Positions 10,865 through 28,871 of a stretch of DNA of 64,000 bases are shown in pieces (position 1 is the stretch's first letter; the number at the start of each line of letters is the position of its first letter). The notes beneath the pieces were generated by a model. That model was not told the DNA's origin and searched no databases. It saw nothing but the letters and a program-made list of their open reading frames with translations. Both the position numbers and the translations under genes were made by a program. The DNA comes from Bacillota bacterium. Lineage in GTDB: Bacteria; Bacillota; SHA-98; UBA4971. The stretch spans positions 8,735-72,734 of the forward strand of contig JASEJE010000005.1 in NCBI GenBank assembly GCA_030024085.1. Reading direction: 5' to 3'.

Positions 10865-10917
10865 CACCGCAATCCCAACAGCCGTTGAAAGACTGGGAGG
10901 AACCAACGAACCCCCAC
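10865..10917 (+). repeat. Copy 1 of a ~50-nt repeated intergenic motif with palindromic core CCAACAGCCGTTG
   Basis: caccgcaatcccaacagccgttgaaagactgggaggaaccaacgaacccccac matches 28765-28816 at ~45/53 positions in the same orientation. Confidence 0.5.
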
Positions 10918-11094
10918 TTAGCCCGCGGAACGCCGGAAGGGACGGCCGGCGCTCATCTATGGGTCACCTACTTCACAGGGCCGCTCATACTATACTACTG
11001 GCCGCCTTCGACTCGGTTGCCCTGGGCAGTCCGCCTCCGAGTGGACAACTGGGCAGAACTGGGGACCGTGGCTGCCCGGAGGGAGAGTCAGCCT

Positions 11095-12321
11095 GTGCCG
11101 ATCCTGGGGAATGGCAACGAAGCGCCCGTCCCGCTTTCAGAGGCGCCCCTGGGCTCCGCGTGCCGCATCGTATGCCTGGTTGCTGCGGGGTTTTCGAGGA
11201 GGCGGCTTCTCGACGTGGGATTCGTCCCGGGAGCGTGCGTCGCCCCAGTGCGCCGCAGCCCTGCCGGCGATCCCACGGCGTATCGTGTGAAGGGCGCCCT
11301 CATCGCGGTTCGGGCGCAGGAGGCGAAGGAGATAATGGTGCACATCTTGCCGCCGGGGCTGCCCGCCGCCGGACGCGTGGTCTGGAACGATTCTCGCACC
11401 CCGGCCGTCGCCCCTGGCCCCGACTTCGACGCCGGCCTTGACCCCGGGTCCGGTACCGCATCTCTGACGGAGGTGAGTCCTGTGAGGTTCATGCACCACC
11501 CATCATTGCGCGTATCGTGCGGTGTTCGCAAGCCCCGGCCCGGCCGGTCGCAAGGTGCGCCCCCGCCTGTCTGCCGCACCGTCGCATTGGCGGGCAACCC
11601 TAACACGGGAAAGAGCACCGTCTTCAACGCCCTCACGGGGCTCGGCCAGCATACCGGCAACTGGCCGGGTAAGACCGTGGTCGTGGCGGAGGGCTTTTAT
11701 ACCCACCGTGGGACGACCTACCGTGTTGTCGATCTCCCCGGCACATACTCCCTCCTTGCCACGTCACCGGAGGAGGAAGTCGCGAGGGACTTCATATGCT
11801 TCGGCGAGGCCGACGCGACGGCCGTCGTGGCCGATGCAACATGCCTCGAGCGCAACCTCAATCTCGTCCTCCAGATCATGGAGATAAGGCCGCGAGTCGT
11901 GGTTTGCCTCAACCTCATGGACGAGGCGAGGCGCAAGGGGATCTCCGTGGACGCGAAAGGGCTTGCCTCGGAGCTCGGGGTCCCCGTCGTGCCTACCGCG
12001 GCGCGGGCGAGGCAGGGTCTCGCGGCGCTCATGGACGCTATAGCGGATGTGGCAAGCGGGCAGCTTCCCACAAGGCCGCTTGAGGTCACCTACAGCCCGG
12101 AGATCGAGGCGCTGGTGGGCGACATCGAACGGCCCCTTGCGGCGATCATGGGTGAGATCGCCCCAGGGATCTCCCTCCGCTGGCTCGCCCTCCGGCTCAT
12201 AGACGACGACCGCGGCCTTATCGAGGCGATCAACGAGAGGGTGAGCAAGAAACGAGCACAGGACACACGATCCAGGCGCGCGGCGCGTCCTGTGGCTGCG
12301 AGGAGCGGGATCCCGGCGTGA
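11095..12321 (+). CDS. feoB: FeoA domain fused in frame to the FeoB N-terminal GTPase plus GDI/helical domain (ferrous-iron transport)
   Basis: FeoA-like SH3 segment (LGSACRIVCLVAAG...VGFVPGACV...AYRVKGALIAVRAQEAKEIMV) and then the G-domain (ALAGNPNTGKSTVFNALTG, DLPGTYSL). The probable start is the GTG at 11095 after GGAGGGAGAG. The ORF-track start at 10885 reads through the repeat motif and is unlikely. Confidence 0.7.
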   Translation: MPILGNGNEAPVPLSEAPLGSACRIVCLVAAGFSRRRLLDVGFVPGACVAPVRRSPAGDPTAYRVKGALIAVRAQEAKEIMVHILPPGLPAAGRVVWNDSRTPAVAPGPDFDAGLDPGSGTASLTEVSPVRFMHHPSLRVSCGVRKPRPGRSQGAPPPVCRTVALAGNPNTGKSTVFNALTGLGQHTGNWPGKTVVVAEGFYTHRGTTYRVVDLPGTYSLLATSPEEEVARDFICFGEADATAVVADATCLERNLNLVLQIMEIRPRVVVCLNLMDEARRKGISVDAKGLASELGVPVVPTAARARQGLAALMDAIADVASGQLPTRPLEVTYSPEIEALVGDIERPLAAIMGEIAPGISLRWLALRLIDDDRGLIEAINERVSKKRAQDTRSRRAARPVAARSGIPA

Positions 12322-13718
12322 CTCGCGTGGCCAGCCGGCAGTTTCTCGATATCGTAGAGCAAGCCCGGCAGGCAAGATCACAGGTGCCGGGCGACGTCAG
12401 GGACCTCATGGTAACCAGGATATACGAGGTGGCCGGGACCATCTGCCAGAAGACGGTGCGCCGTGCGCCTCAACCAGCGCGCGATTGGGATACGCGCCTG
12501 GACGACGTCCTCACGTCGAGGCTTTTCGGGTACCCGTTCATGCTCGCCCTGCTGGGCGTGGTCTTCTGGATAACCCTGGTGGGCGCGAACGTCCCTTCAA
12601 GGCTACTGGCGGCCGCGCTCTTCTGGGGACAGGACCGGCTCCTGGACCTTTTCTCGTGGGCAAGTGCTCCCGCCTGGCTCACGGGCGTACTCGTCATGGG
12701 AGCGTATAGGGCGCTCGCATGGGTCGTGTCGGTCATGTTGCCGCCGATGGCGATATTCTTCCCGTGTTTCGCCCTGCTCGAGGACCTGGGCTACCTCCCA
12801 AGGGTGGCCTTCAACCTTGACGCCCTTTTCAAGCGCGCGGGCACCCACGGCAAGCAGGCCCTGACCATGTGCATGGGGTTCGGCTGCAACGCTGCGGGGG
12901 TGGTCTCGTGCCGCATAATCGACTCACCGCGCGAACGGCTCATTGCCATCCTCACCAACAACTTCGTGCCGTGCAACGGCCGGTTCCCGACCCTCATAGC
13001 CATGTCCGCCATGTTCTTCGGGGCGGGCCTGCGGGGCGGCACTGGCAGGGGTGGCTCCGCCGTGTCGCTCCTCGGCGCAGTGGTCCTCGGCATCGCCGTC
13101 ACGCTCGGCGTGTCGTGGCTCCTGTCGCGGACGTTGCTCCGCGGGGTTGCGTCCTCTTTCGTGCTCGAGCTCCCGTCGTACAGAAGACCCGAGGCCGTGA
13201 GGGTGATCGCGAGGTCCCTCCTCGACCGCGCCCTCTTCGTGCTTGTGAGGGCTGCGACGGTTGCGGCGCCCGCCGGGGCTGTGACGTGGGTGCTCGGGAA
13301 CGTGATGGCGGGCGGCGCAAGCCTGCTCGCCCGCGTGGCAGGCTTTTTTGATCCATTCGCACGCCTGATCGGGCTCGACGGACACATCCTCACCGCCTTC
13401 GTGCTCGGGCTACCCGCGAACGAGATAGTGATCCCCATCCTCCTGATGGGGTACTCCGGTGCCGGAGCCATGGTGGATGTCGGCGGGCTCGACGCCCTTC
13501 GAGCGGTGCTCGTGGCAAACGGGTGGACCCCGCTCACTGCGGCGTGCGTCATCCTGTTCTCCCTGCTCCACTATCCGTGCGCCACGACCCTCTGGACCAT
13601 CTGGCACGAGACCCGAAGCGCCAGGTGGACCGCGGTAGCGGCGCTCCTGCCGCTCGCCGTGGCCTGTGCAGTGTGCTTCACCGCGGCTTCCGCCGCAAGG
13701 CTCCTCGGACTGACGTGA
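12318..13718 (+). CDS. feoB: FeoB C-terminal part (linker plus polytopic gate/membrane domain)
   Basis: The N-terminus aligns to the FeoB linker (DLMVTRIYEVAGTICQKTV...DTRLDDVLTSRLFGYPFMLALLG resembles E. coli ...ARYQCIAAICDVV...DKIVLNRFLGLPIFL). It is followed by multiple TM helices. The GTG start overlaps the upstream TGA (GTGA). Confidence 0.7.
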   Translation: MTRVASRQFLDIVEQARQARSQVPGDVRDLMVTRIYEVAGTICQKTVRRAPQPARDWDTRLDDVLTSRLFGYPFMLALLGVVFWITLVGANVPSRLLAAALFWGQDRLLDLFSWASAPAWLTGVLVMGAYRALAWVVSVMLPPMAIFFPCFALLEDLGYLPRVAFNLDALFKRAGTHGKQALTMCMGFGCNAAGVVSCRIIDSPRERLIAILTNNFVPCNGRFPTLIAMSAMFFGAGLRGGTGRGGSAVSLLGAVVLGIAVTLGVSWLLSRTLLRGVASSFVLELPSYRRPEAVRVIARSLLDRALFVLVRAATVAAPAGAVTWVLGNVMAGGASLLARVAGFFDPFARLIGLDGHILTAFVLGLPANEIVIPILLMGYSGAGAMVDVGGLDALRAVLVANGWTPLTAACVILFSLLHYPCATTLWTIWHETRSARWTAVAALLPLAVACAVCFTAASAARLLGLT

Positions 13719-13750
13719 GGGCCGTCGGCCGCACGCAACCAGACACGCGT

Positions 13751-14947
13751 CTACACTCTCGCCAGGGCCTGGTCGAGGTCGGCGATGACGTCCTCCGGGT
13801 CCTCGAGGCCCACCGAGACCCGCACCAGCGCCTCGCTGAACCCGAACTCGGCGAGCCGCTCCCTCGGATACTCGCGGTGCGTCATGGACGCCGGATGCTC
13901 CACGAGGGTCTCCGCATCTCCCAGGCTCACCGCGATGGTGCACAGTCGCAGGGCGTCCATGAAGCGGACCGCGGCGTTATAGCCGCCCTTCACCTCGAAG
14001 GACACGATGCCTCCGCACCCACGCATCTGGCGCGTGACAAGCTCGCGTTGGGGGAAGTCATCGAGCCCCGGATACAGCACGCGCTCCACGTTCGGGTGGC
14101 CCGCCAGGAACCTCGCCACCGCCAGCGCGTTGCTGGCATGACGCTCCATTCGAATGCCGAGGGTCTTGAGACCCCGCAGGAAAAGCCACGCGTTGAAGGG
14201 CGCCAGCACCCCGCCGAGGTCACACAGGAAGTCGAAGCGCAGCCGGAAAACGTAGTCAGGGTCGCGCGCAACCGCCACCCCGCCCAGAGCGTCGCCGTGG
14301 CCGCCGATGTACTTGGTGCACGAATGCACCACCACGTCCGCCCCGAGAGCAAGCGGGTTCTGGAAATAGGGCGTCGCGAACGTGTTGTCCACGACCACCG
14401 TGGCTCCGCGACGATGGGCTGCCTCCGCGGCGGCGGCGATGTCCACAAGCTCAAGGCTTGGGTTGGCGGGGGTTTCAAGGTACACAACCTTCGTCGCGTC
14501 GGTCAGGCCGGCCTCGAGCGCGCCGGGGCGTGCGAGGTCGGCGAACCTAGCGCTTATGCCATATCGCGGCAGGAAGTGGGTCACCACGTGGTAAGTCGAG
14601 CCGTAGAGCGTGCGCGATGTCACGAGCTCGTCCCCCGCCTCCAGAAGCGACAGCAGTACGGACGAGATCGCTGCCATCCCAGATGAGAAGGCCACGGCCT
14701 TCTCGCCCTTCTCCAGGACGGCCATCTTCTGCTCGAACAGCCGCAGGGTCGGGTTGTTGCCGCGAGTGTACACGTACTCTGCGGACTCCCCCGAGAACAC
14801 CTTCTGGGCATGGGCAACGCTGTCGAACACGAAGGTGGACGTCTGGTAGATCGGGGGGTTCAAAGCGCCGAGGGCATGCTTACCGTCCCATCCGGCGTGG
14901 ATCGCCTGCGTATCGAACCCCAGGTTTCGGCCTGCCTCCTTGCTCAT
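13751..14947 (-). CDS. Cys/Met-metabolism PLP-dependent enzyme (cystathionine gamma-lyase / methionine gamma-lyase / O-acetylhomoserine sulfhydrylase family)
   Basis: MSKEAGRNLGFDTQAIHAG...NPPIYQTSTFVF and the PLP-lysine region HSCTKYIGGHGDALGG. The start ATG is at 14945-14947. Confidence 0.8.
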   Translation of the reverse strand: MSKEAGRNLGFDTQAIHAGWDGKHALGALNPPIYQTSTFVFDSVAHAQKVFSGESAEYVYTRGNNPTLRLFEQKMAVLEKGEKAVAFSSGMAAISSVLLSLLEAGDELVTSRTLYGSTYHVVTHFLPRYGISARFADLARPGALEAGLTDATKVVYLETPANPSLELVDIAAAAEAAHRRGATVVVDNTFATPYFQNPLALGADVVVHSCTKYIGGHGDALGGVAVARDPDYVFRLRFDFLCDLGGVLAPFNAWLFLRGLKTLGIRMERHASNALAVARFLAGHPNVERVLYPGLDDFPQRELVTRQMRGCGGIVSFEVKGGYNAAVRFMDALRLCTIAVSLGDAETLVEHPASMTHREYPRERLAEFGFSEALVRVSVGLEDPEDVIADLDQALARV

Positions 14948-15252
14948 CCCGTGTTCACCATCCCATCTATGTACGGGTTCATGAACCCGCTGGCTTTCTC
15001 CACTTCGCGGCAACGCTGCAGGGTGAAGGTCAGGCGAGGCGCCCCGCCCTAGCAAGCGCCGGCAACCCTAACACCCCCAAGAAAAGTGGCGAAAACTTAT
15101 GGCGCCATACTTAGGCAAAACCAACGGTTTCGTTCAGAGAGTCCCACGAGCTCTCCAGCAGGTTCGGGGCAGCGATCTCAAGACTCACACCCATGCACGG
15201 TGCGGAGGCTGGGTCTTCCAGACGCTGCCTCCGGCCTCGCTCGGGCGTGAAG

Positions 15253-16224
15253 CTACGACACACCGCCACCGAAATCCAGCAGGACCTTGAGGCTTCCCCG
15301 CCTTCCCGCCTCTTCGAACGCCTCTATCGCACAGGCCGCCGGGAAGACGCCATCGATGAGGCTCGCGGTATCGATCCTCCGTTCTTCCAGGAGCCGCATG
15401 GCAGGTGGAAACGGTCCGCACCTGGAGCCGACGCACGTCGCCTCATTGACCACCACCGGCGAGAGGTTCGTAGGGGCCTCGCCGTGAAACGTGCTCTTGA
15501 GGACGATCGTGCCGCGCGGGCGCACAAGAGCCACCGCCTCCGCCAGCCCCGACGGGCTTCCAGTGCACTCCACCACCACGTCAGCCCTCCGCGACAAGGC
15601 CGGGGACCCGGAGAGCGCTGTCTCGATGCCGGCCTTTCGCGCGATGTCCAGTTTCTCCTCGTGTCGTCCGACGAGGATCACGTGGTGCCCCGAGGCGTGG
15701 ACAGCCTGGGCCACGAGAAGGCCGAGCTTTCCGTCGCCGAGCACCACGACACTATCCGACGGGCGAATGTGGACCTGCTCCAGCACTTCCACTGCCGCCG
15801 CGAGAGGCTCGGTGAAGACGGCCTCGCGGTCGCTCACCGACCCCGGGACGGGATGGAGGTTTTCGCACGGCAACACCGTGTAATCAGCGAAGCACCCGGG
15901 CCACGCGCGCATTCCCATGGTGCGGATGCGCTGGCAGTGCCGGGGGTAGCCCATGCGGCACATGGGGCACTCCCCGCAGGGTATGTTTATCTCGCCGACC
16001 ACTCTGTTACCCACAAGGGCCGGCTCATCCGCATCCTCCACCGTCCCGACGAACTCATGGCCCAGGATGCCGGTATACCCGAGGTATCCTCGGGTGATCT
16101 CAAGGTCGGTGTTGCATATGCCCGCGAGCCGCACCCGCACAAGGGCCTCGCCTTTGCCTCTTCCAGGGACGGGAAAGCCGTCTTGCACCAGGAGGCGCTC
16201 ACCGTCGAAGACAACCGCGCGCAC
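15253..16224 (-). CDS. Zn-dependent alcohol dehydrogenase (medium-chain dehydrogenase/reductase family)
   Basis: GHEFVGTV catalytic-zinc motif, a Cys-rich structural-zinc loop (CGECPMCRMGYPRHC) and a Rossmann GDGKLG. Confidence 0.75.
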   Translation of the reverse strand: MRAVVFDGERLLVQDGFPVPGRGKGEALVRVRLAGICNTDLEITRGYLGYTGILGHEFVGTVEDADEPALVGNRVVGEINIPCGECPMCRMGYPRHCQRIRTMGMRAWPGCFADYTVLPCENLHPVPGSVSDREAVFTEPLAAAVEVLEQVHIRPSDSVVVLGDGKLGLLVAQAVHASGHHVILVGRHEEKLDIARKAGIETALSGSPALSRRADVVVECTGSPSGLAEAVALVRPRGTIVLKSTFHGEAPTNLSPVVVNEATCVGSRCGPFPPAMRLLEERRIDTASLIDGVFPAACAIEAFEEAGRRGSLKVLLDFGGGVS

Positions 16225-16252
16225 AAAACCTCACCCTCTCGATCCTTCCGGC

Positions 16253-16996
16253 TCACCCTTCCTCGCCCGCAAGCCGTGCCACGGCGTCAAGGGCGATCTC
16301 GGCCTCGAGCTCGATGGCTTTCGCCACCACCTCGCGGTTGGGATTGTAGGCGTCGCCCTCGAACTCGACAGCCACGCCGTCCACGGCGAGGATCGCACCT
16401 GCGCACACCCCACGCAGCGCCGCCACTATGAGGAGCGCCGAGACCTCCATCTCGACCCCTATGGCTCCCGCGCGGCTCATCTCGGCGTTCGGGAGCGGCA
16501 GGATGCCCGGGTAAAATGCCCCCACCGAAAGCACCACGCCTCTCGAGATCCTCGCGCCGCGCGCAAGACCCACCCCGTAAAGGGCATCTGCGACCCTGCT
16601 GTCGGCAATAGCGGGAAAGGACAGGGGGACAAGCTGGTCCGTCACCCCGTCCTCTCGCACGGCACCCGTGGCCACGATGAGGTCCCCGTCCACGATGGAG
16701 CGGCTCAGCGACCCGGCTGTTCCGACCCTGATGAGGACCCTGGCGCCAGCCTTGATGAGATCCTCGAAACATACGCATGCCCCGGCCGCCCCAACGCCGT
16801 GGGATGCGATCGTCACGGGCGTGCCCCGATACACACCGTTTACAACGCGGTACTCGCGGTTGTACGCAACCTCGCGGGCATCCTCAAGGTGCTTCGCGAT
16901 GACGCGAGTCCTTCCAGGATCACCACAGACGATTGCGTACTGCGAGACCTGGCCCGGGTAGACCTTCAATATCGGTAACATTCTCTCGTTGGCCAT
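16253..16996 (-). CDS. Purine/uridine nucleoside phosphorylase, PNP/UDP family 1 (DeoD-type)
   Basis: GDPGRTRVIAKHLEDAREV (compare DeoD [20 protein letters not shown]) and RVGTAGSL. The start is at MANERMLPIL. Confidence 0.8.
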   Translation of the reverse strand: MANERMLPILKVYPGQVSQYAIVCGDPGRTRVIAKHLEDAREVAYNREYRVVNGVYRGTPVTIASHGVGAAGACVCFEDLIKAGARVLIRVGTAGSLSRSIVDGDLIVATGAVREDGVTDQLVPLSFPAIADSRVADALYGVGLARGARISRGVVLSVGAFYPGILPLPNAEMSRAGAIGVEMEVSALLIVAALRGVCAGAILAVDGVAVEFEGDAYNPNREVVAKAIELEAEIALDAVARLAGEEG

Positions 16997-17183
16997 CTTC
17001 ACCCCCCCAACACACATGTCTTGCACATACATTCTCCGGAGGGCACCCGATATCGCGGGTCAGCCGCATATTCCACGGGTGACCGGCCCGATTTCCCGCG
17101 GGAACCTGCCTGGGGCGGCCCGGCCGGCTCCATCCCGGCTCCGGTCATCGAACCGCCCCAGGCCATGCCGGCTTGTGGCCGGC

Positions 17184-17954
17184 CTACAGAAGACAGCCCA
17201 CTACAAGAGCGATGATAAACGGAACAAGCCCGATCTGAACACCAACGCCGTAGGAGCCTACCCCGAACCCCGCAAGCTTTGCGCCATAGGCCCCCGTAGA
17301 TATCAGAAGGCCTACGACAAGGCCGCCGAAGGCGCCCGCCCACGTGAGGGTCTGCCCCACTGCAGGGCGCCTCACGGGCGAGATGTCGTCCTCATCCATG
17401 ACCTCGGTCCACAGGAGGTCCCACTTCTTGATACGGGGATAGAGAAGCAGGATGAGAGGCGGCCCGAGGATGATGGGCACCGCGGCGTTGTTCAGGAAGA
17501 TGATGCTGCCGAGCACCGCGAACGGGAGCATCCGCAGCACCTCAAGCCCCCAGGCTATGATGGTCGCACACGCCGCGCTGGAAACGATGAGCGCAAGAGC
17601 ATAGTGAAGGAAGTCCTTGCCCGACTTTATGGTCGCCTCTTTCCTCAGCGCCTGCCACACTTTATACAACACGATCCCCTGGAACAGATTGCCGAAGAAG
17701 CCGAAGAAGCTCCCTGGTCCGAGAGTCCCGAAGAAGTCGCCGATAAGGTTCCCGAATGCGAGACCCCACGCGCCGGCGGGCCCGAAGAACAGCGGGAACG
17801 TAGCAGCGATGATCTGCGCCGGGCGGAACTCGGTGATACCAGGGATGATGGGAATGCCTTTGAACGGTATGAGGATGGCCGCGTAAACCGCAGCAGTCAG
17901 GGCCGTGAGCATCACCATCTTCGTGTTCTTCCACATGGTGAACATCTCTCTCAT
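17184..17954 (-). CDS. Polytopic membrane protein, candidate ECF-transporter substrate-capture (S) component
   Basis: 256 aa with about 6 predicted TM helices and Gly/Phe-rich loops (FGPAGAWGLAFGNLIGDFFGTLGPGSFFGFFGN). It is encoded in the same operon as the EcfT and EcfA-A' genes. The family assignment is an inference. Confidence 0.45.
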   Translation of the reverse strand: MREMFTMWKNTKMVMLTALTAAVYAAILIPFKGIPIIPGITEFRPAQIIAATFPLFFGPAGAWGLAFGNLIGDFFGTLGPGSFFGFFGNLFQGIVLYKVWQALRKEATIKSGKDFLHYALALIVSSAACATIIAWGLEVLRMLPFAVLGSIIFLNNAAVPIILGPPLILLLYPRIKKWDLLWTEVMDEDDISPVRRPAVGQTLTWAGAFGGLVVGLLISTGAYGAKLAGFGVGSYGVGVQIGLVPFIIALVVGCLL

Positions 17955-18108
17955 GGTAACAACTCCTCTCCTTTTACGGTTGTTGCATGATCATTTCTGT
18001 CACGTGTCGCATTTCGCTTTCACTCATCGATCCCTCATGCCAGTCGTCTCATGCGACCTAGGTCGCGCCTGTGATACCACCTGCGACATTGCCTACAAGC
18101 CAGACCAA

Positions 18109-19152
18109 TCATTTGCTGTGCTCGACCTCGGCCATCTCCTTCAGGCTCTCCCGGTACGGAGGGCGAGCCACGCCTCTCTCGGTGATGATTGCCGTAACAT
18201 ATCGTGCAGGAGTAACGTCAAACGCCGGGTTGAAGACCGCCACGTGCTGGGGAGCCACCCGATGCCCGAGGATCTCCACCACCTCCCTCGGATCCCTTTC
18301 CTCGATGGGGATATCCCGACCGGTCGCGCAGGCAAGGTCCAGCGTTGAGACGGGGGCCGCGACGTAGAACGGGATCCCGTTCTCCTTCGCAAGCACCGCC
18401 ACGCTGTACGTGCCTATCTTGTTCGCGACATCCCCGTTCGCTGCGATCCTGTCGGCCCCCACGATGACGCAGTCGACCTTGCCAAGGCTCATGACGTAGC
18501 CAGCCACGTTATCCGTGATGAGCGTTACAGGGATACCGTCCTCCACAAGCTCGAACGCGGTGAGCCTCGCGCCCTGGAGATATGGCCGGGTTTCATCGGC
18601 GAAAACGTGGACACGCTTTCCCTGCTCCACCGCGGCGCGCACGATACCCAGCGCTGTGCCGTACCCGGCCGTAGCGAGGGCGCCGGCGTTGCAGTGAGTA
18701 AGCACGGTCACCGGGTCCCCCAGGAGGCTCGCCCCGTTCCTGCCTATCTGCCGGTTGGCCTCCACGTCTTCCTCCTCCGTCTCCCGGGCAGCCGCCTCCA
18801 TAACCTCGGGAATCCTGCACCAATCTGGGCACCCAAGGGCAACGTCCAGCATCTTTCCCACGGCCCACGCGAGGTTCACAGCTGTGGGCCTCGCGGCTGT
18901 GAGATCCCGTGCCGCCTCTCTCAAGCGTTCGATGTACACGGCACGCTCGCCCGCATGGAACTCACGAGACGCGAGGACCATGCCATATGCGGCGCTTATC
19001 CCGATGGCCGGCGCTCCCCGCACCTTCATCGTGCGGATTGCATCGCCTACGTCCCGGTAACTCCTGCAGGTGACATACTCCTTTTCGAGCGGAAGCCGGG
19101 TCTGGTCGAGAAGCTCGAGAGCGCTCCCGTCCCAGACGAGTGCTTTCAGCAT
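18109..19152 (-). CDS. mtnA: S-methyl-5-thioribose-1-phosphate isomerase family (MtnA / eIF-2B-like)
   Basis: [27 protein letters not shown]...[19 protein letters not shown]. The start ATG is at 19150-19152; the ORF-track extension to 19356 is probably untranslated. Confidence 0.8.
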
Positions 19153-19247
19153 GTCGTATTTCCCCCTCTTGCGGTCCGATCTCGCGCTCTGCCGACTCTG
19201 AACCTGCGCCGCAGCAGCAGCACATGAACACCGAGCGCGCGGGCCGC

Positions 19248-20057: not shown

Positions 20058-21748
20058 GCCACGAGCTCATCCACGGTGAGAACCGGAAGCCCGAGCCTGG
20101 CGCCGAAGCGCACGATCTGCGGCGGCTTGAGGAACACGTCGGCAAGCTCTTTCTCGCGGACGAACACGTCCCTCACGGGTCCGTCCATCACCACCTGCCC
20201 CTCCTTGAGCACTACGGCACGGTGGGCGTATGCTGCCGTCACCCACATGCTGTGGGTGACAATAATGATCGTGTGGCCCATCTCGTTCAGCCTTTTTATG
20301 AGGTCCATCATGCTTTCTTGCTCTTTGTAGTCGAGGCCCGTAGTCGGCTCGTCGAGGATGATGACTTCAGGCTTCGCTGCAAGCACCGATGCCACGGCCA
20401 CGCGCTGGCGTTGCCCCTTCGTGAGCGAGAACGGATCTTCCTCTTCGCTCCCGGTAAGCCCCACGGCCTCGAGGGCATCGACAACCCGCGCCTTCACCTC
20501 CCCCTCCGGCACGCCGAACAGCCTTGGCCCGTACGCGACCTCGTCAAACACGGTCTGCGCGAAGATCTGGTGGTCCGGGTTCTGGAACACGTAGCCCACC
20601 GTCTTGCTCAGCTCGAACATGCTGGTGGCCCGCGTGTCCCTGGCGTTCACCACGACCTCGCCGCCGGTGGGTGCAAGCAGGCCATTGAAATGCTTGACAA
20701 GCGTCGTCTTGCCGCTGCCGTTCTGGCCGAGCACCGCGACGAACTCTCCTCGCCGGATGGTGAGGTCCACGCCCCTCAAGGCCTCAAGCCCGTTTTCGTA
20801 GCGGTGAACGAGGTTCCTGACCTCAATCACGGGGTCGCCGTAGCCCGCCTGCTGCTGCCGGGTCTTCTCCGACACCAGGGAGTCCAGCCTTCTCCTGTCG
20901 GCGGCGAGGCCCAGCCTCTCCCAGGCAGAGAGGCCCTCCTCCACGGTGAGCGGAAGCTCGCCCCCATCGAGGGATGCCCCTGGCCCGAGGGATGCGAAGA
21001 ACTCCGCAACCTCGAGGGGCTTGACGGAACACTCTTCGAGCAGCGCGGGACTCGCCAGGATGGCCCGCGCGTTCCCCTCTGCCACGATCCGGCCGTCACG
21101 CATGAGGACGATCCTGTCGGCTTTGAGAGCCTCCTCGGTCTCATGCTCCACTATGAGCATGGTCATGTTCTTCTCCCGGCTGAGCTCGTCGGCTACCTGG
21201 AATACGTCGAACTTGCCGATGGGGTCCAGGTCAGTGGTAGGCTCGTCCATGCATATGATCCGTGGCTGGATCGACAGCGCCGAGGCAATGGCGAGCCGCT
21301 GCTTCTGGCCACCGGAGAGCGTGGCGGGCTGTCTCGCCTCGAAGCCATCCAGGCGTACCCTCTTGAGGGTGGCGTGGATGCGCCGCCCTATCTCGTCGGG
21401 GTCAACGCCGAAGTTCTCGGGACCAAAGGCCACCTCGAGCTCGACGTTAGTGGAAAAGATCTGCGTCTCGAAGTCCTGGAAGACAAGGACGATGTCCCTC
21501 GCGAGATCGCTGACCTTGTGCTTCTTGGTAGGTACGCCGAACACTCTGACCTCGCCCGAGTATTTTCCTTTCTTGAAGTTCGGGATGAGCCCGTTCAAGG
21601 TGAGGCAGAACGTAGATTTCCCGGCGCCACTCGGGCCCATCAGAACGACGAACTCCCCGGGGCTTATTGCGAGGTCTACCCCGGAGATGGCCTCGCGCTC
21701 GCTGCCCTTGTACGCAAAGGACAGGCCCTGGACCTCGACAGCGTTCAT
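20024..21748 (-). CDS. ECF transporter ATPase, fused tandem EcfA-EcfA' (two ABC domains)
   Basis: Two Walker A motifs (GPSGAGKST; GQNGSGKTT), two LSGGQ-type signatures (LSGGQKQR; LTKGQRQR) and two Walker B (ICMDEPTTDLD; IILDEPTTGLD). Confidence 0.85.
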   Translation of the reverse strand: MNAVEVQGLSFAYKGSEREAISGVDLAISPGEFVVLMGPSGAGKSTFCLTLNGLIPNFKKGKYSGEVRVFGVPTKKHKVSDLARDIVLVFQDFETQIFSTNVELEVAFGPENFGVDPDEIGRRIHATLKRVRLDGFEARQPATLSGGQKQRLAIASALSIQPRIICMDEPTTDLDPIGKFDVFQVADELSREKNMTMLIVEHETEEALKADRIVLMRDGRIVAEGNARAILASPALLEECSVKPLEVAEFFASLGPGASLDGGELPLTVEEGLSAWERLGLAADRRRLDSLVSEKTRQQQAGYGDPVIEVRNLVHRYENGLEALRGVDLTIRRGEFVAVLGQNGSGKTTLVKHFNGLLAPTGGEVVVNARDTRATSMFELSKTVGYVFQNPDHQIFAQTVFDEVAYGPRLFGVPEGEVKARVVDALEAVGLTGSEEEDPFSLTKGQRQRVAVASVLAAKPEVIILDEPTTGLDYKEQESMMDLIKRLNEMGHTIIIVTHSMWVTAAYAHRAVVLKEGQVVMDGPVRDVFVREKELADVFLKPPQIVRFGARLGLPVLTVDELVACVGREEGARK

Positions 21749-22512
21749 GAGGTTCGAATGCCCCCTTCTGTTCTCATGGCTCTCCTGATGACTGAAAAGT
21801 GGAAGAAATCCGGATGGAAGTAGTCTTCGCCGAACGCCACAGCATCGCCGTCCTCACTATAGTGGACCTGCTCAAGAAGCAGTAGTGGTTGTCCCTCGGT
21901 AAGCCCCAGCTTTCGCGAAAGCGCCCTATCGGCACCGACAGGTCGGATGTCAGCCCTAACCAGCTCCACCTGGATACGCTGGGCGGCAAGCATCCTGAAG
22001 AGCGAACCCGCATACCTTGTGAGAAACTCCTCCGGCGAAAGCAGGCGGGGCACCAGCCTGGCTGGCACTCTGTCCCTTCCGTAGACGACGGGCTGCCCGT
22101 CCGCGGTCCTTATCCGGTCAAAGGTAACTATATCGAGGTCGTCACCAAGCCCAAGCCGCTCCGCAAGCCGCGCGTCCGCGCGCTCCGACCTCACTACAAG
22201 GGAGGTGGTCCCAGGCTGCATGCCCAGTTGCCTGATGAGATCTGTGATGCTCGAAAGCTCCTCGATGCCGCTCTGTATCATCCCGGCGCGGCGTCTCACG
22301 AACGACCCTACGCCATGCTTTCGAGCGATGATGCCCTGGTTCTCGAGCACCCTGAGGGCTTCCCGGACCGTCGAGCGGCTTACGCCGAGCCTAGTGGCCA
22401 GTTCCTGCTCAGACGGCAGCCGGTCACCCGGCTGATGCGCAGCTTCGATCATGGCGACGATTTCATCCTTCACCTGCAGGAAGATGGGTCTTGCCACCAC
22501 CGGCACGGGCAA
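21745..22512 (-). CDS. GntR-family transcriptional regulator (HutC-subfamily-like, HTH plus UTRA effector domain)
   Basis: N-terminal HTH (RLPSEQELATRLGVSRSTVREALRVL). It is the first gene of the operon with the ECF/mtnA genes. TTG or GTG start near 22506-22512. Confidence 0.8.
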   Translation of the reverse strand: MPVPVVARPIFLQVKDEIVAMIEAAHQPGDRLPSEQELATRLGVSRSTVREALRVLENQGIIARKHGVGSFVRRRAGMIQSGIEELSSITDLIRQLGMQPGTTSLVVRSERADARLAERLGLGDDLDIVTFDRIRTADGQPVVYGRDRVPARLVPRLLSPEEFLTRYAGSLFRMLAAQRIQVELVRADIRPVGADRALSRKLGLTEGQPLLLLEQVHYSEDGDAVAFGEDYFHPDFFHFSVIRRAMRTEGGIRTS

Positions 22513-22718
22513 TCCTCCTCTGAAGGCGGGCTCTGCACCATAGGCGCCACTTCGTTACCTCCGAGGCCTTTCGCATGCTCGCCGTTGGAAAGCCTACCGG
22601 GCCTGCCGGGCCTTAAGACCCGCGACCCCGCCACAACCCCAGCCCGTCCGGCCGCGGGCCCTGATGCTGCTATGCCTCTTGTAAGCTCGCGCCACGTGTC
22701 TGGTCCCGTGATGCCTGG

Positions 22719-22735
22719 CGACCAGACGTTGGTCG
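22719..22735. promoter_or_regulatory. Inverted repeat CGACCA-N5-TGGTCG, candidate GntR/HutC-type operator in the leader of the GntR gene
   Basis: Perfect 6-bp arms. The GACCA...TGGTC architecture resembles HutC/NagR-type operators. It lies ~210 nt upstream of the regulator start. Confidence 0.3.
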
Positions 22736-23107
22736 TCCGGCAACTCTGCCTGCACTCCTCTTCGATGCAGCCGGTCACTTTCCTGCTGAATCATAGCACA
22801 TATTTACGATGTATTCGCCTGTTACTATCTGGCACTGACTCCTGACGCTGGCCTCTCCCGAGCTACAACCCGGCCCTGAGGCCTGCGTGCTTTTCGCTTC
22901 ACTTTGGCCTGCCGGCGGCAGGCGGGGACATCCGGGCGTTCCTGCCGCACGCGAGAGGCCCCCGTACGATATCTCAGGCTTCAGCCTCGGCTGTTCCCAC
23001 GATACCGACCATCGCACTGGCGTCTTGAGGTGCCCCGCTCTGACTCAAAGAGACATCCCGGACGAATCCCGGCCTCCTAACTTCCCATCCGCTCCTGCCG
23101 CCGGAGG

Positions 23108-23659
23108 TCACCCGATTCTGTACCTGCGCACGCCCTCTTCGTAAAGGTCGTTCCCGTACATGTCGTTGACCACAACAGCCGGGAAGCCTTCCACGGTGAG
23201 CTTCCTGATAGCCTCGGGGCCGAGGTCTTCGTATGCCACAATCTCCGATGCCTTCACGCACTTGGCGAGAAGCGCGCCAGCACCGCCGATGGCGGCGAAG
23301 TACACTGCCTTGAACCTGACCATGGCGTCCCTGACGGCCTGAGAGCGGCTCCCCTTGCCGATCATACCTTTGAGCCCATCCTCCATGAGAAGCGGGGCGT
23401 ACGAGTCCATTCTGTAGCTTGTGGTCGGCCCCGCTGATCCGATCGGCTTTCCGGGGCGCGCCGGTGCCGGGCCGACGTAGTATATGATCTGCCCCCGGAT
23501 GTCCATGGGAAGCTCTTTCCCCTCGGCAAGCAAGGCCACCAGCCTCTTATGTGCGGCATCCCGCGCAGTGTACAGGACTCCCGATATCCTCACGTTGTCG
23601 CCAGCCTTCAGCCTGGCAACGACTTCATCAGTGAGCGGAGTAGATATTTCGATGGCCAC
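23108..23659 (-). CDS. Fe-S hydro-lyase beta subunit (class I fumarate hydratase / L(+)-tartrate dehydratase beta type)
   Basis: The C-terminal domain family pattern (...GPEAIRKLTVEGFPAVVVNDMYGNDLYEEG) matches the FumB-C/TtdB family. The GTG start at 23657-23659 follows GAAGGAGG. Confidence 0.7.
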   Translation of the reverse strand: MAIEISTPLTDEVVARLKAGDNVRISGVLYTARDAAHKRLVALLAEGKELPMDIRGQIIYYVGPAPARPGKPIGSAGPTTSYRMDSYAPLLMEDGLKGMIGKGSRSQAVRDAMVRFKAVYFAAIGGAGALLAKCVKASEIVAYEDLGPEAIRKLTVEGFPAVVVNDMYGNDLYEEGVRRYRIG

Positions 23660-23685
23660 CTGTGATGCCTCCTTCAACTGGGCGC

Positions 23686-24579
23686 TCAGAGCACAACGGT
23701 TTCGTGCGGGCCGACGTGGCAGTTGAGGTTCACCGCCACGGGCATGCTTGCGATATGGCACGGCGCATACTCGATGTTGACAGCAAGCGCCGTGGTCCTC
23801 CCGCCAAACCCCTGCGGCCCGATGCCAAGATTGTTGATCTCTGTGAGGAGTTCCTCTTCCAGCTTCGCGTACACCGGGTCAGGGTTGTGGGACCCTACAG
23901 GGCGCAGGAGCGCCTTCTTTGCGAGTAGCGCTACGCGGTCAAAGGTCCCTCCGATCCCGACCCCGACCACCACCGGGGGGCAGGGGTTGGAGCCGGCCTT
24001 CTGGACGCGCTCCACGACGAACTTCTTCACGCCCTCCACCCCGGCCGCAGGCGTCAGCATGGCGACGCCGCTCATGTTCTCCGCGCCGCCGCCCTTGGGC
24101 GCCACCGTTATCTTGACATTCGTGCCGGGGACGATATCGACATAGATCATGGCAGGCGTGTTGTCCCCAGTGTTCACCCTCTTGAAAAGGGGGTCGTTCA
24201 CCAGGGACTTCCGAAGGTATCCTTCGGTGTAGCCCTGTCTCACGCCCTCGTTGATGGCCGCATAAAGGTCGCCGCCGACGAAGTGGACGTCCTGCCCTAC
24301 CTCAAGAAAGACCATCGCCACTCCCGTGTCCTGGCATGCAGGGACCCCTTCTTCCCGTGCGATGCGGTGGTTCTCGAGTATCTGCTTGAGGACCTCCCTG
24401 CCCACAGGGGACTCCTCCGTCTCCACCGCGCGTTCGAGCGCGCCTATGGTCTCGCGCGGAACGTTGCAGTTCGCGCTGACACACAACTTCTTCATCGCAG
24501 CTGTGACGTCCGATACATGGATCTCCCGTAACCCGTTGCACCCCATACGATCGCCTCCAATCCGTCCGGATCCGGCCAC
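23686..24579 (-). CDS. Fe-S hydro-lyase alpha subunit (class I fumarate hydratase / tartrate dehydratase alpha type)
   Basis: Cys-containing N-terminal catalytic domain (...ACQDTGVAMVFLEVGQDV...). It sits immediately upstream of the beta subunit. The true start is probably an internal Met (~24546). Confidence 0.7.
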   Translation of the reverse strand: MAGSGRIGGDRMGCNGLREIHVSDVTAAMKKLCVSANCNVPRETIGALERAVETEESPVGREVLKQILENHRIAREEGVPACQDTGVAMVFLEVGQDVHFVGGDLYAAINEGVRQGYTEGYLRKSLVNDPLFKRVNTGDNTPAMIYVDIVPGTNVKITVAPKGGGAENMSGVAMLTPAAGVEGVKKFVVERVQKAGSNPCPPVVVGVGIGGTFDRVALLAKKALLRPVGSHNPDPVYAKLEEELLTEINNLGIGPQGFGGRTTALAVNIEYAPCHIASMPVAVNLNCHVGPHETVVL

Positions 24580-24625
24580 TCCTCATCCCCTGCCCGTCGG
24601 GTGCTTGCAAGGTGGGCACCCGCCC

Positions 24626-25981
24626 TCACTTGCCCGTCACGGACACACCTTCGAGCTGGATGTAAGGCAGCCTCATGTCGCCGATGGTTACTGCTTCTCT
24701 TGATACGGCCACTATGTGTGCGAATAGTTCGTAGATGTTTCCTGCGATCATCACCTCTTTGACTGGCTTTGCGACCTCGCCGTGCTCGACGTAATGGCCG
24801 CCCTTGACCACGCCGGAGAAATCGCCGCTTACGGGGTCGAGGTTGCCCGAGAACCTGTTGACTATGAGGCCCTTCGGGGTGTTCCGGACCATCTCGTCAA
24901 GGGAAATCGTGCCGGGCGCAACGACGAGGTTGGTCGTTCCGATGCCGGGCGTGGTCTGGTCGCTCCCGACCGCGCGCCCGTTAGACCGAACGCCGTCTTT
25001 GCGCGCAGTATAGCAGTTGTAGAGATAGTGTCCAAGCACCCCGCCTCCGATGATCTCAAGCGGCTCAGGCGGCACCCCTTCGCGATCGAACGAGGTCGAG
25101 CCCACGCCCCCAGGAATGCGCGGGTCGTCGGTGACGCGAAGAAGCCCCGACGCCACGTTCGCCCCGAGCTTCCCCGCCCATCGGGACCTTCCGTTCTGGA
25201 CGTTTTCGGCGCTCACCGAAAACACGATGGGCTCCGCGATGAGTTCGCCGCCGGCGTAGGGCGTGATTATCACGGCCCCCTTGAAGCTGGGGATGGTCGT
25301 CGCCCCAAGAGCCTTCACAACCTTCTCGGCGAGCCGCCGCCCGCTCGCCTCCGGGTCGATGTCCGCCAGGACGCACGATCCTGAGTACTCCACGTCGAAC
25401 GACGACACATCGTCGCCGTCGCGGGCGAATCCCATGCCCACACACGACAAACTGGTTCCTCTCTCCGACAGGCGCACGCCCTCCGAGTTCACGATGGCGC
25501 GCTCGCCGACCTGCACGACGAAGCTGGCGGAGTCGATGGTGACGCGACGGTCGTATCCCCTCGCCGACTCCACGAACCTGCGCCCGAGGTCGAGCGCGTC
25601 TTCCAGCGCAAGGCCCTCCGCCCTCTCATCGTAAATCCCGGGCACCGGCCGCGTCTCCGACGGCTCCGGAAGTACGTGGTTCGGGTCCTCCGGCGATGCC
25701 GCCGCTATGGCAAGCGCCGCGCAGATGGCATCGTCCACAGCCTCGTCTGTCAGCACGTTCGTTGCGGAAAACCCCTGTCTTGCGCCGCGGATCACGCGCA
25801 CCCCGACCCCCTCGTAGGTGTCGCCCTTGGGCACCTGGAGGTCGTTCTTCTCGAAGACCGCCTCGAGCTTGCGCGTCCTAAGGTAATAAACCTCGGCCTC
25901 GTCAGCACCCCTCGCCCTTGCGCGGTGCACGAGTTCATCGCAGAGTTCCACGCCCTTCATGCCACGCCCTCCTTCACTCAT
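24626..25981 (-). CDS. TldD/PmbA-family metalloprotease (PmbA/TldE-like)
   Basis: 451-aa protein of the PmbA/TldD fold. It is paired with a TldD paralogue, as in tldD/tldE modules. Confidence 0.75.
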   Translation of the reverse strand: MSEGGRGMKGVELCDELVHRARARGADEAEVYYLRTRKLEAVFEKNDLQVPKGDTYEGVGVRVIRGARQGFSATNVLTDEAVDDAICAALAIAAASPEDPNHVLPEPSETRPVPGIYDERAEGLALEDALDLGRRFVESARGYDRRVTIDSASFVVQVGERAIVNSEGVRLSERGTSLSCVGMGFARDGDDVSSFDVEYSGSCVLADIDPEASGRRLAEKVVKALGATTIPSFKGAVIITPYAGGELIAEPIVFSVSAENVQNGRSRWAGKLGANVASGLLRVTDDPRIPGGVGSTSFDREGVPPEPLEIIGGGVLGHYLYNCYTARKDGVRSNGRAVGSDQTTPGIGTTNLVVAPGTISLDEMVRNTPKGLIVNRFSGNLDPVSGDFSGVVKGGHYVEHGEVAKPVKEVMIAGNIYELFAHIVAVSREAVTIGDMRLPYIQLEGVSVTGK

Positions 25982-27350
25982 GGCGTCCGCCGATGGTCAC
26001 GCGGCACCGGAGGTACGGCCCACCCGCGTCGACCTTCGCAGGTTGCCACTTCCCGCAATGACCCGAACCCAGGTTCAGCTCGAAGTCGCCGGAAACCGCA
26101 TCCACGCTCTTCAGCACCTCGAACGCCTGGCCGGAGATGGTTATGCCCTTGACAAGCTCGCCGACCTTCCCGTGCCTCACCCGGTATGCCTCCGAGATCC
26201 CGAACATGAACTCGGCGGTGGCGTCAGCCTGCCCCCCCTGCCCCATTTCCTTGAGGAAGAAGCCATCCTCGATACCAGCGACCATATCGTCGAGCTTCGA
26301 GGCGCCGGGGAGGATGAACGTATTTGTCATCCTTATGATCGGCTCATCGCGGTAAGTGAACGCCCGCGCGTTGCCACGCGGCACCGTGTCGAATGCAGCC
26401 GCCGACTCGCGGCTGTGAAGGTAGTTCCGAAGGACTCCCTTATCGATGACGACCGTCCGCTCGCCCAGCACGCCCTCGTCGTCCACGAGCGCCATACCTG
26501 CTGCGCCACGCATCGTGCCGTCGTCCACCAGCGTCACGAGGTCGGACGCGACCTTCTCGGCGATCTTGTCCTTCACGACGGACCCGCTTTGTACGAAGTC
26601 TGCTTCGACCGTGTGCCCTATGGCCTCGTGGGACAGCACCCCCACAAGCTGCGGGTCGAGGATGACGGTGTACTGACCGCCCTTCGCATAGCCTGCGTCG
26701 AGTTTCCTTACGGCGAGGTCAACGGCCTCGTCAACCATCTTGTTGAGGTCCCGCTTTCTCATGAGGTCATGCCAGCCGCCGGTGACCCCCCAGCCCTTGG
26801 CGCCGGTCTCGCGCTCATCGCCCCGTCCGACCGTGACGAATACGTGGAAACTGGGCTTGTGGTCCACGATGTGCGCCTCGGCGCCATCGGACGTCACGAT
26901 ATACTTCTCATCTGCATATTCGGTGTAGATCACGATGCTTCCCACAACGAGCGGCGAGACCTCGCGCATGCGTTTCTCGGCAGCCATAACGACTCCAATC
27001 TTCGTAGCTATGTCCGGCTCGTCTTCGCGGGCCTGGTAGATGAACTCCCCTTTCCCGAGGCGGGCCGGCGCAAGCCTCGCCTTCTCCCGCCTCAGGCGGG
27101 CGCCCGCCCTCGCTGCGTCGGACGCCTCGGCGATGGCTTTCACGAGCCCTTCCCGGGTTACATCTGTGGTCGAAACGAACCCCCACGACCCATCGACGAG
27201 GCATCGCACGCCGGCACCCGCCAGGGTGCGCCGCTCCACGCGCTTGAGCGTGCCGTTCCGCGCATCGATGGCTGTCTGGAGCCGCCTGTGGTATCTGATC
27301 TCCGCGTAACCCGGCGCTCCTGCCAGAGCCGACTTCAATAGATCGAGCAT
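25974..27350 (-). CDS. TldD-family metalloprotease
   Basis: HEAIGHTVEAD (HExxxH-like TldD motif) and the overall TldD architecture. The start is at MLDLLKSAL. Confidence 0.8.
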   Translation of the reverse strand: MLDLLKSALAGAPGYAEIRYHRRLQTAIDARNGTLKRVERRTLAGAGVRCLVDGSWGFVSTTDVTREGLVKAIAEASDAARAGARLRREKARLAPARLGKGEFIYQAREDEPDIATKIGVVMAAEKRMREVSPLVVGSIVIYTEYADEKYIVTSDGAEAHIVDHKPSFHVFVTVGRGDERETGAKGWGVTGGWHDLMRKRDLNKMVDEAVDLAVRKLDAGYAKGGQYTVILDPQLVGVLSHEAIGHTVEADFVQSGSVVKDKIAEKVASDLVTLVDDGTMRGAAGMALVDDEGVLGERTVVIDKGVLRNYLHSRESAAAFDTVPRGNARAFTYRDEPIIRMTNTFILPGASKLDDMVAGIEDGFFLKEMGQGGQADATAEFMFGISEAYRVRHGKVGELVKGITISGQAFEVLKSVDAVSGDFELNLGSGHCGKWQPAKVDAGGPYLRCRVTIGGRHE

Positions 27351-27529
27351 GACTCCACCTTCCTTCCTCATCAATCCGGTCCTCGCCAATCCCGGACCTG
27401 GCGGCCTACCGCGTGGGCACCACCCCATGCCAGCATAGACATGGCAGGCCTTCCCCCTCGAAGGGCCCGCCGCCTCTCACTAACGCGCTGCCGCGTGCCT
27501 CGTCCGCCGCGCGAAACCCCTCCCTGTAG

Positions 27530-28399
27530 TCACGGCCCCCCACGCGCCGTATCCACCCGGAACGTGGTCCCGTCCGTGGTGACGACCACGTCGCCGTCAA
27601 CGTCGGTGCGGTACACCCTGTCTGTGTAGTCCGCCAGGTTCAGGAGGGTTATCCGGTGAGGATGGCCGTACGAGTTCCCCGCCCCGACCAGGATCACCGC
27701 AACAGCAGGCTTCGCCGCCTTGAGAAACCATGGGCTCGACGAGGTCCTGCTCCCGTGGTGGGCAACCTTGAGGACCGCCGCGCGAAGGTCCGCCCCGCTC
27801 TTCAGCATGGCGTTCTCTGCGTCCCTCTCCGCATCGCCTGTGAAGAGGAAGCTGACTTTGCCATATTCCAGCCTGACTACGACGGAGCAGTCGTTCATGT
27901 TCTCCGGAAGCGGCTCTGTTGGGTGCAGGATCCTGGCGGCGAACCCGGGGCCGAGATCGATGCTATCCCCCGCCCGCCCCAGGCGGAACCGGATGTTCTT
28001 CTGGTCTATAAGGGTGAGGAATCGCTCGTACGTCGCCGTCGTGTGGACTTTCCCCGAATCCACCACGAGGCCCACCGGGAACGCGCGAAGCACCTCCACA
28101 AGACCGCCTATGTGGTCTGCATGAGGATGGGTGGCCACCAGCACGTCGATCTTCGCGACCTCCTGCTCTTTCAGGTAGGCGATCAGCCGCTCGGACGCAT
28201 CAGCCGGGCCACCATCGATGAGCATCGTCTTTCCCGAGGGGGCCAGGATGAGGATGGAGTCGCCCTGGCCGACATCGATGAAGTGGACCGCAAGACGCCC
28301 AGCCCCGCTTCCGGTGCCCGCACCCGCTGCGTCTGCCCCCATCATGGCAGCCCAGAGCGTCATCGCTGCAAGCGCCACAAGGGCCGCAGCCATCGGCAT
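27530..28399 (-). CDS. Membrane-anchored/secreted MBL-fold metallo-hydrolase (ComEC C-terminal-domain-like)
   Basis: HFIDVGQGDSILI...VLVATHPHADHIGGL and an N-terminal hydrophobic segment (MPMAAALVALAAMTLWAA). Confidence 0.7.
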   Translation of the reverse strand: MPMAAALVALAAMTLWAAMMGADAAGAGTGSGAGRLAVHFIDVGQGDSILILAPSGKTMLIDGGPADASERLIAYLKEQEVAKIDVLVATHPHADHIGGLVEVLRAFPVGLVVDSGKVHTTATYERFLTLIDQKNIRFRLGRAGDSIDLGPGFAARILHPTEPLPENMNDCSVVVRLEYGKVSFLFTGDAERDAENAMLKSGADLRAAVLKVAHHGSRTSSSPWFLKAAKPAVAVILVGAGNSYGHPHRITLLNLADYTDRVYRTDVDGDVVVTTDGTTFRVDTARGGP

Positions 28400-28764
28400 C
28401 CCTGTCGCAGTGCGGGGCAGACGGGCGGCGCGCGTCGGCGCGCCCCCCTGCCGGGTTCCTGGATGAGGGTTACGGTGGCACCTGCGCCGCGGCTGCCCCG
28501 GGCTCGTCAGAATCCCCTTTACGAACGCGGTGGCTCTCATGTGCCAGCCTCCTGCCCTGTGGTGCTGCGCCGCCCTTTTGCATTAGCCCAGCGCTAATAC
28601 TTCATCGCCCGGCCACCGAACTCCTGCACATTCGCGGAAAAGTCGCCGCCTGTTGCAGATGGCAGCGAGCCATGACGCATACCTTGAATGAGGATGGCGG
28701 AGCGCGCTTCGCCAGAATCCAGCCTGTCGGGCAAGTACGCGGATTCTGACACCACTCGCACGGC

Positions 28765-28816
28765 CACCGCGAGCCCAACAGCCGTTGGAAAACGCGGAGG
28801 AGCTAACGAACCCCGA
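28765..28816 (+). repeat. Copy 2 of the repeated intergenic motif (core CCAACAGCCGTTGG)
   Basis: caccgcgagcccaacagccgttggaaaacgcggaggagctaacgaaccccgac. It is exactly 17,900 bp from copy 1, in the same orientation. Confidence 0.5.
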
Positions 28817-28871
28817 CCTGGAGCCAGAGAGGCCGGACAGGCTGGTACGCCCCTTTGAGCGAAACCCACAT

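Follow-up and report, generated by a model that had tools for sequence, protein, structure and literature searches.

Two copies of an intergenic repeat in an uncultured Bacillota bacterium are probably arms of decayed TA-targeting MITEs

A motif of about 50 nt occurs twice in a 64-kb stretch of contig JASEJE010000005.1 (assembly GCA_030024085.1) from an uncultured Bacillota bacterium. The whole stretch, which has a G+C content of 64%, is called the window here. Copy 1 of the motif precedes feoAB and copy 2 precedes an MBL/ComEC-like gene. What kind of element is repeated at these two sites? An earlier reading, made from the sequence without database searches (the sequence-only reading), noted a palindromic core and proposed a shared operator, a small structured RNA or a REP/MITE-like element, and it mentioned attachment sites with reservation. 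Our analysis favours the MITE-like part of the third proposal. We consider it fairly likely that each copy is the arm that has been kept best in one of two decayed MITEs (short for miniature inverted-repeat transposable elements), named E1 and E2, which would be distant members of a TA-targeting family active in this lineage. Both elements are about 130 nt long, their ends match those of the TA-flanked family, and distant relatives do not have them.

The repeat itself is real. Positions 10865-10917 and 28765-28817 are identical at 44 of 53 positions in the same orientation, so the earlier estimate of about 45 of 53 holds for the repeat and needs only its count adjusted. The ungapped identity is 45/56, and the weaker similarity that had been noticed further downstream does continue, with 59/81 identical positions over 10865-10945 and 28765-28845. 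A gapped local alignment of both intergenic regions scores 64, compared with 19.1±2.3 (maximum 28) in 300 shuffles. The similarity is therefore far beyond chance and does not collapse against the compositional background. An independent repeat-finding run on the window returned the same pair as a direct repeat (D4) of 73 nt with 75% identity and a spacing of 17,900 nt. The distance of 17.9 kb was thus read correctly, and so was the number of copies, since no third site of the conserved blocks is found on either strand of the window with 2-3 mismatches allowed. The round spacing is without discernible meaning. As to the palindrome, the proposed inverted repeat CCAAC-AGCC-GTTGG is perfect in copy 2, while copy 1 has GTTGA and loses one of the five pairs on the + strand; its fifth pair is possible only as U·G in − strand RNA. 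The stretches concerned are the following.

10865-10945, − strand: copy 1, shared stretch (right arm of E1 plus about 25 nt of flank)
28765-28845, − strand: copy 2, shared stretch (corresponding arm of E2 plus about 25 nt of flank)
10875-10888, no strand: palindromic core of copy 1, CCAAC AGCC GTTGA
28775-28788, no strand: palindromic core of copy 2, CCAAC AGCC GTTGG

The family to which we relate these arms is frequent in this uncultured Bacillota lineage. Three copies are found in the 64-kb window and at least two more in loci of the closest relative, MAG107 (GCA_050261335.1), whose FeoAB is 99% and whose MBL protein is 88% identical to that of the window. Loci of related genomes are given L-numbers; L001, L009 and L013 belong to MAG107. 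The members in the window, together with a site that is occupied only in MAG107, are these.

37811-38001, + strand: full-length family MITE, 191 nt including its TA flanks, between divergent HGD-D and HMGL-like genes
33902-34111, − strand: full-length family MITE, 210 nt, with degenerate ends (TA...TG)
15036-15113, − strand: a single arm of a family MITE, at a locus where MAG107 has a full copy
11023-11024, no strand: empty site, GTTGCCC-TG-GGCAG, in the feoAB leader; MAG107 has a family MITE of about 210 nt there

The member at 37811-38001 has a terminal inverted repeat (I8) of 32 nt with 81% identity, forms an end-to-end DNA hairpin (z=-7.07, 0/200 shuffles) and gives E-values of 1e-14 to 1e-17 with a hidden Markov model (HMM) of the family arms. 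The arm of the element at 33902-34111 is the family member nearest to the repeat motif. Further copies are present at L009 4256-4467 and, in a short form of 124 nt, at L010 608-731. Full copies measure 190-235 nt and short forms about 125-130 nt, and the overall range is 124-235 nt. All copies are intergenic and flanked by TA...TA, except for the TA...TG of 33902-34111, and most of them stand inside C-TA-G. The flanks are C-TA...TA-G for 37811-38001, L010 608-731 and the MAG107 feoAB insertion, and T-TA...TA-G for L009 4256-4467. The family terminus is TA-AGTGTGGGTTCAGAAATC, and the arms begin with TA-AGTGTGGGTTCA.... Directly after the family MITE of L009 a second, truncated arm is found at 4467-4507, which begins at the CTAG inside the consensus (GCTTGC-TA-GGGCGG). 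This arrangement suggests that family copies insert into one another.

The feoAB leader shows the family in two states. In MAG107 the feoAB contig stops 280 nt upstream of feoAB, and the btuF-like contig stops on the opposite side. The two contig ends (L009 1-215 and L013 1-125) overlap as reverse complements, and both end inside an insertion. Joining them gives an insertion of about 210 nt, TA-AGTATGGCGCC...GATCTACT-TA, within GTTGCCC/GGCAG, where the window has GTTGCCC-TG-GGCAG. The pair reads as one site in its filled and its empty state, with the dinucleotide duplicated, by which the family is mobile and polymorphic between the two metagenome-assembled genomes. A TA target, often within CTAG, together with duplication of the TA, is typical of IS630/Tc1-mariner transposases, and a transposase of this type would probably mobilise the family. 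Bacterial MITEs are described as small and non-coding, with terminal inverted repeats, 5'-TA-3' at their termini and a target duplication (PMC2229807). By its size, the lack of coding capacity, the terminal inverted repeats, the TA termini and the target duplication, the family fits this class.

The link between copy 1 and the family comes from profile searches. The arm HMM was built without copies 1 and 2. With it, copy 1 (10923-10853 on the − strand, model positions 3-74) ranks next after all true arms with E=0.015, and after one more iteration E is 0.052. An inverted match to the terminus lies 130 nt away at 10788-10812 on the + strand (E=0.4-0.5). From the E-value and the search space we estimate the chance of a second, facing match within 250 nt at about 3e-4. 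These paired facing matches define E1 at 10793-10918, with TA|AGTGGGGGTTCG as its right terminus on the − strand and CA|AGTGAGGATGCAGAAGTGC as its left terminus on the + strand. In a MAFFT alignment, copies 1 and 2 run colinear with all arms between the terminus and the block GGG.TTGC.GGTG. A profile of the two repeat copies likewise finds family arms, with weak matches (L008 6459-6522, E=0.003). A full-length alignment of E1 with the TA-flanked element of L010 (124 nt) gives z=6.8 and 5.3, scores that 0-1 of 500 shuffles reach. Pairwise alignments of the copies with single MITE arms under strict scoring are weak (z≤3.5), so that the support comes from the profile and full-length alignments.

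The surroundings of copy 1 agree with an added segment of this size. As the sequence-only reading had placed it, copy 1 lies between a cobalamin riboswitch (10474-10727, − strand) with its BtuF/FecCD-type uptake operon and feoAB on the + strand, which probably begins at the GTG at 11095. When relatives are compared, two conserved blocks stand out, TTGCTG-N17-TAGAAT of the riboswitch operon (10778-10750, − strand) and GGTCACC...TATACT before feoAB (10962-10996). Between them are 183 nt in the window, compared with 57 nt in L010 and L014-L017. The 126 nt by which the window exceeds these relatives equal the length of E1, which begins 13 nt upstream of the promoter-like sequence. Judged from this conservation, copy 1 would lie in an untranscribed spacer between the two promoter blocks. 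A simple promoter consensus scan of the copy 1 spacer gave no match.

10793-10918, − strand: E1, decayed MITE-like element of 126 nt, flanks CA (10791-10792) and TA (10919-10920)
10750-10778, − strand: putative promoter of the riboswitch operon, TTGCTG-N17-TAGAAT, with the -10 hexamer kept in relatives
28687-28818, − strand: E2, decayed MITE-like element of 132 nt, flanks TG (28685-28686) and TG (28819-28820)
28642-28671, − strand: terminator-like hairpin followed by TTTTCC, downstream of E2, proposed from the comparison with relatives

Copy 2 is connected to the family through E1. The full-length comparison of E1 and E2 gives z=11.6. The far end of E2 at 28687 (AATGAGGATGGCGGAGCGC) matches the left terminal 19-mer of E1 at 14 of 19 positions and stands exactly at the position that the length of E1 predicts (binomial probability 3e-5 per position over 93 positions). 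The homology and the matching far end together set the bounds of E2 at 28687-28818. Family membership of E2 would follow by way of its homology to E1. With 126 and 132 nt and no coding capacity, both elements are within the limit of ≤~300 bp for MITEs.

The site of copy 2 also agrees with the earlier description. It lies between two − strand genes, after the stop of a DUF4340 gene (28872), which ends an ABC-transporter operon, and before the MBL/ComEC-like gene, which starts at 28540. The order on that strand is DUF4340 stop, copy 2, terminator-like hairpin and a conserved region before the MBL gene. The hairpin has other stem sequences (GGCCCGC...GCGGGCC) in L003, L006, L018 and L019, and it was missed by the terminator consensus scan because its T-run is short. 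With copy 1 between promoters and copy 2 in a 3' untranslated region (UTR), the two copies are placed differently with respect to promoters and transcripts.

MAG107 has both copies. Its copy 1 is identical and lies within a region of about 98% identity. At its copy-2 locus about 66 nt adjoining the motif are absent (window about 28698-28764), which, given the bounds of E2, is an internal deletion that keeps both ends. The divergence between the window and MAG107 is uneven, with about 98% identity at the copy-1 locus and about 92% at the copy-2 locus, in addition to the different protein identities of FeoAB (99%) and the MBL protein (88%), and this suggests population recombination or mosaic binning. 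In more distant relatives with the same flanking genes the motif is absent, both from the copy-2 locus (L003, L006 and L018) and from the copy-1 locus (L010, L014-L017 and L021). Conservation in related genomes is therefore partial, as the motif is shared with MAG107 and missing from distant relatives at either locus.

The copy-2 locus of L019 holds a mosaic relative of these elements. There a terminus of the E1-left type (22/25, 0/500 shuffles), which starts inside the stop codon, is joined to an interior of the E2 type, which scores 31 against 9.5±1.5 in shuffles. Thus the 3' UTR was occupied before these lineages split. A weak arm-like match in the corresponding intergenic region of L022 is not significant (E=0.29). 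That copy 2 was inserted recently, and only in the clade of the window and MAG107, is contradicted by the homologous interior in L019, which shows an earlier occupation of the locus. Inside E2, a hairpin is observed at 28713-28748 (CAGAATCC...GGATTCTG), whose L019 version has a compensatory change (CAAAATCCGGCC...GGCCGGATTTTG) and which is deleted in MAG107. It may be a 3' UTR element of the RNA-stability or terminator-like kind, or simply MITE interior.

From these results the following history can be proposed. The family elements carry no gene, and a transposase encoded elsewhere would recognise their terminal repeats and insert them at TA, usually within C-TA-G, duplicating that TA. E1 would have entered the DNA that separates the divergent promoters of feoAB and the B12-riboswitch operon, and E2 the 3' UTR at the end of the ABC/DUF4340 operon. 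Since then the two elements would have lost most of their terminal complementarity, so that they are probably immobile today. The palindrome would simply be part of the arm, and E1 and E2 presumably have no function.

Several observations weigh against this history. For copy 1 the E-values from the family profile are marginal (0.015-0.05), and for copy 2 the family profile by itself has no significant match (E=49). Arm-to-arm complementarity within E1 and within E2 is not significant; only about 8 terminal pairs are left in E1, and the folds of E1 and E2 (z=-0.6 and -1.1) are no better than those of shuffles. The flanks are CA/TA and TG/TG instead of TA/TA, although single transitions, as we assume, would be enough to produce them. 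No transposase is found in the annotated parts of the window. Further, the right arms are 80% identical and the interiors of E1 and E2 almost unrelated. And the similarity of the two copies extends some 25 nt past the proposed right terminus (14/25, p≈0.002), which independent transposition does not predict.

The last two of these points are those on which the strongest rival builds. It holds that a tract of about 80 nt was duplicated or converted ectopically between the two intergenic regions, with or without older repeats, in place of two transpositions. Such a tract would account for a similarity that ends sharply at ...GCGGTG and yet runs past the putative terminus, and for interiors that are nearly unrelated. 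It would also fit a peculiar distribution of differences at copy 2. Between the window and MAG107, 5 of the 11 differences in 136 nt cluster in 13 nt (scan statistic p≈0.05), and at all five of these positions copy 2 of the window equals copy 1. What such a tract leaves unexplained is the match of both E1 ends to the family termini, the agreement of the E1 size with the extra spacer, and the match of the far end of E2 with that of E1. As a replacement for two insertions we therefore hold it to be unlikely. Conversion fits better as an addition to the MITE explanation: the overrun, the contrast between arms and interiors and the five-change cluster in the palindrome suggest ectopic gene conversion between arms on top of an older MITE origin.

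The same five changes bear on the shared operator of the sequence-only reading. In that proposal CCAAC-N4-GTTGG, within a module of about 50 nt, would bind a dimeric regulator that controls the feoAB and B12-uptake promoters together with the MBL gene. The position of copy 1 between two divergent promoters would suit it, and so would the 14-nt core that both copies have in common (ending in GTTGA in copy 1 and GTTGG in copy 2) and the right arm, which is far better kept than the rest of each element. However, the core of copy 2 in MAG107 is CCGATGGCAGCTGG, in which 5 of 14 positions are changed, compared with only 6 differences in the surrounding ~120 nt, and 4 of its 5 stem pairs are kept only as G·U wobbles. 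Copy 2 moreover has a stop codon on one side and a terminator-like hairpin on the other; it is about 225 nt upstream of the MBL start and not at a promoter, and the block before the MBL gene that is kept across relatives is located elsewhere, at 28582-28640. The motif is missing at both loci from relatives that have these operons. The altered palindrome in MAG107 and the absence from other clade members are unlike an operator for these operons, and we regard this proposal as distinctly unlikely.

Two further scans count against the operator as well. The exact pattern GGGGTTCGT...TCCTCC, built on the core, has two matches in the JGI metagenomes, whose flanks are unlike those here and which are thus chance matches, not true copies; in viral contigs it has none. 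In the genome collection, a pattern that has TTTC at the place of CTTT in copy 1, and so could match sequences of the copy-2 type only, gave nothing but the orthologous copy 2 of MAG107. Neither the MITE nor E1 has a blastn match among plasmids.

A palindrome of another kind is present before the MBL/ComEC-like gene, ATTAGC-N5-GCTAAT at 28582-28598, about 45 nt upstream of its start at 28540. It lies in a block, TGTGCAGGAGT..GATGAAGTATTAGCC..GCTAAT, that is kept in L001, L003, L006 and L018, where the surrounding intergenic DNA has diverged. By this conservation it appears to be a better candidate than the repeat motif for the operator or promoter of the MBL gene.

A variant that keeps the MITE origin is that the host has co-opted the arm, for instance as a platform to which a host factor or a domesticated transposase binds, with selection or templated patch repair keeping the copies similar. 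This would explain the arms of 80% identity beside the decayed rest, the overrun past the element end and the palindrome patch in which copy 2 of the window equals copy 1. We rate it as quite improbable all the same.

Less still speaks for a small structured or cis-regulatory RNA on the − strand, upstream of the riboswitch operon and the MBL gene. Both copies do lie upstream of − strand genes on that strand, and a small hairpin with G·U pairs can be drawn in all three sequences. Rfam, scanned at gathering scores over the window, has no match apart from the cobalamin riboswitch, and at a permissive E≤10 the two loci give chance-level matches only, in line with the earlier remark that the motif matches no known RNA family. 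Minimum free energy z-scores of single sequences in 91-nt windows on both strands range from -1.17 to +1.08 and are not significant. In RNAalifold the covariation term is ≤0.01 on both strands for the three distinct sequences, a number that gives little power. In addition, copy 1 is upstream of TTGCTG-N17-TAGAAT and thus probably outside the transcript of the riboswitch operon. No convincing sigma-70, ECF or sigma-54 promoter is seen inside the motif by eye, and consensus scans found neither promoter nor terminator in or beside it. A structured RNA is therefore very improbable here.

A coding origin was examined and rejected. Differences between copies 1 and 2 are distributed over the codon phases as 8/6/8, without periodicity. 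Three − strand frames and a + strand TTG frame were read by eye, and the overlapping open reading frames (ORFs) have no Pfam match and are mutually unrelated. The idea that both copies lie inside paralogous small genes is thereby given up.

That the two same-orientation repeats are attL/attR sites bounding an integrated element of 17.9 kb, or that they derive from a tRNA fragment, can practically be dismissed, as the sequence-only reading had already suspected for the former: the genes in between are of the housekeeping kind (feoAB, a Cys/Met PLP enzyme, ADH, a PNP-family phosphorylase, QueT, an IF-2B-family protein, an ABC ATPase, fumarase, TldD/PmbA and the MBL protein) with neither integrase nor tRNA, and relatives without the repeats keep their genes in the same order across both junctions, one of them (GCA_012516125.1) with both loci on one contig.

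Two observations concern genes of the window and not the repeat. FeoA is fused to the G-domain of FeoB in one ORF (11095-12321), and the membrane part of FeoB (Gate/FeoB_C) is encoded by a separate, overlapping ORF (12318-13718); in L010, L014-L017 and L021 FeoA is a separate gene. A direct repeat of 104 nt with 70% identity and a spacing of 204 nt (44370-44473 and 44574-44677) lies in an ORF of 949 aa (42125-44974) and is probably an internal protein repeat.

If E1 and E2 are decayed MITEs, they resemble several known systems in part. RUP (repeat unit of pneumococcus), the usual example for such a TA target, is a 107-bp MITE of Streptococcus pneumoniae that is thought to be mobilised by IS630-Spn1 (PMC2229807). 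Like it, the present elements are short, non-coding and intergenic, have TA termini and targets, are presumably mobilised in trans and require no function. There is no sequence similarity to RUP, the family here is G+C-rich, its full copies of 190-235 nt and short forms of about 125-130 nt differ in size from RUP, and the terminal inverted repeats of E1 and E2 are largely lost. The Correia/NEMIS elements of Neisseria occur in forms of about 107 and 155 bp that differ by an internal segment of about 50 bp, and they duplicate TA (PMC2229807). Here as well the long and short forms share arms and differ internally, the sites are by promoters and in 3' UTRs, and the ends are TA. However, organism and sequence are unrelated, and Correia elements have well-kept terminal inverted repeats of 24-26 bp, IHF sites and promoter or RNase III effects. 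REP/BIME sequences with their RAYT transposases are likewise short, G+C-rich, palindromic intergenic repeats that often follow stop codons. They are, in contrast, single imperfect palindromes of about 35 nt in hundreds of copies, without TA flanks and without arms of about 60 nt, whereas the palindrome here has only 5 bp and is altered in the sister genome.

The clade, uncultured high-G+C Bacillota from digester-type metagenomes, thus carries an undescribed TA-targeting MITE family with long and short forms that is still polymorphic. Its repeats break assemblies, as in the case of the two MAG107 contigs that end inside one. The family also seeds palindromes and conserved-looking blocks in promoters and UTRs, which are easily misread as operators or RNAs. 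Recognising it avoids such misreading and yields strain-level markers; beyond annotation its importance is small.

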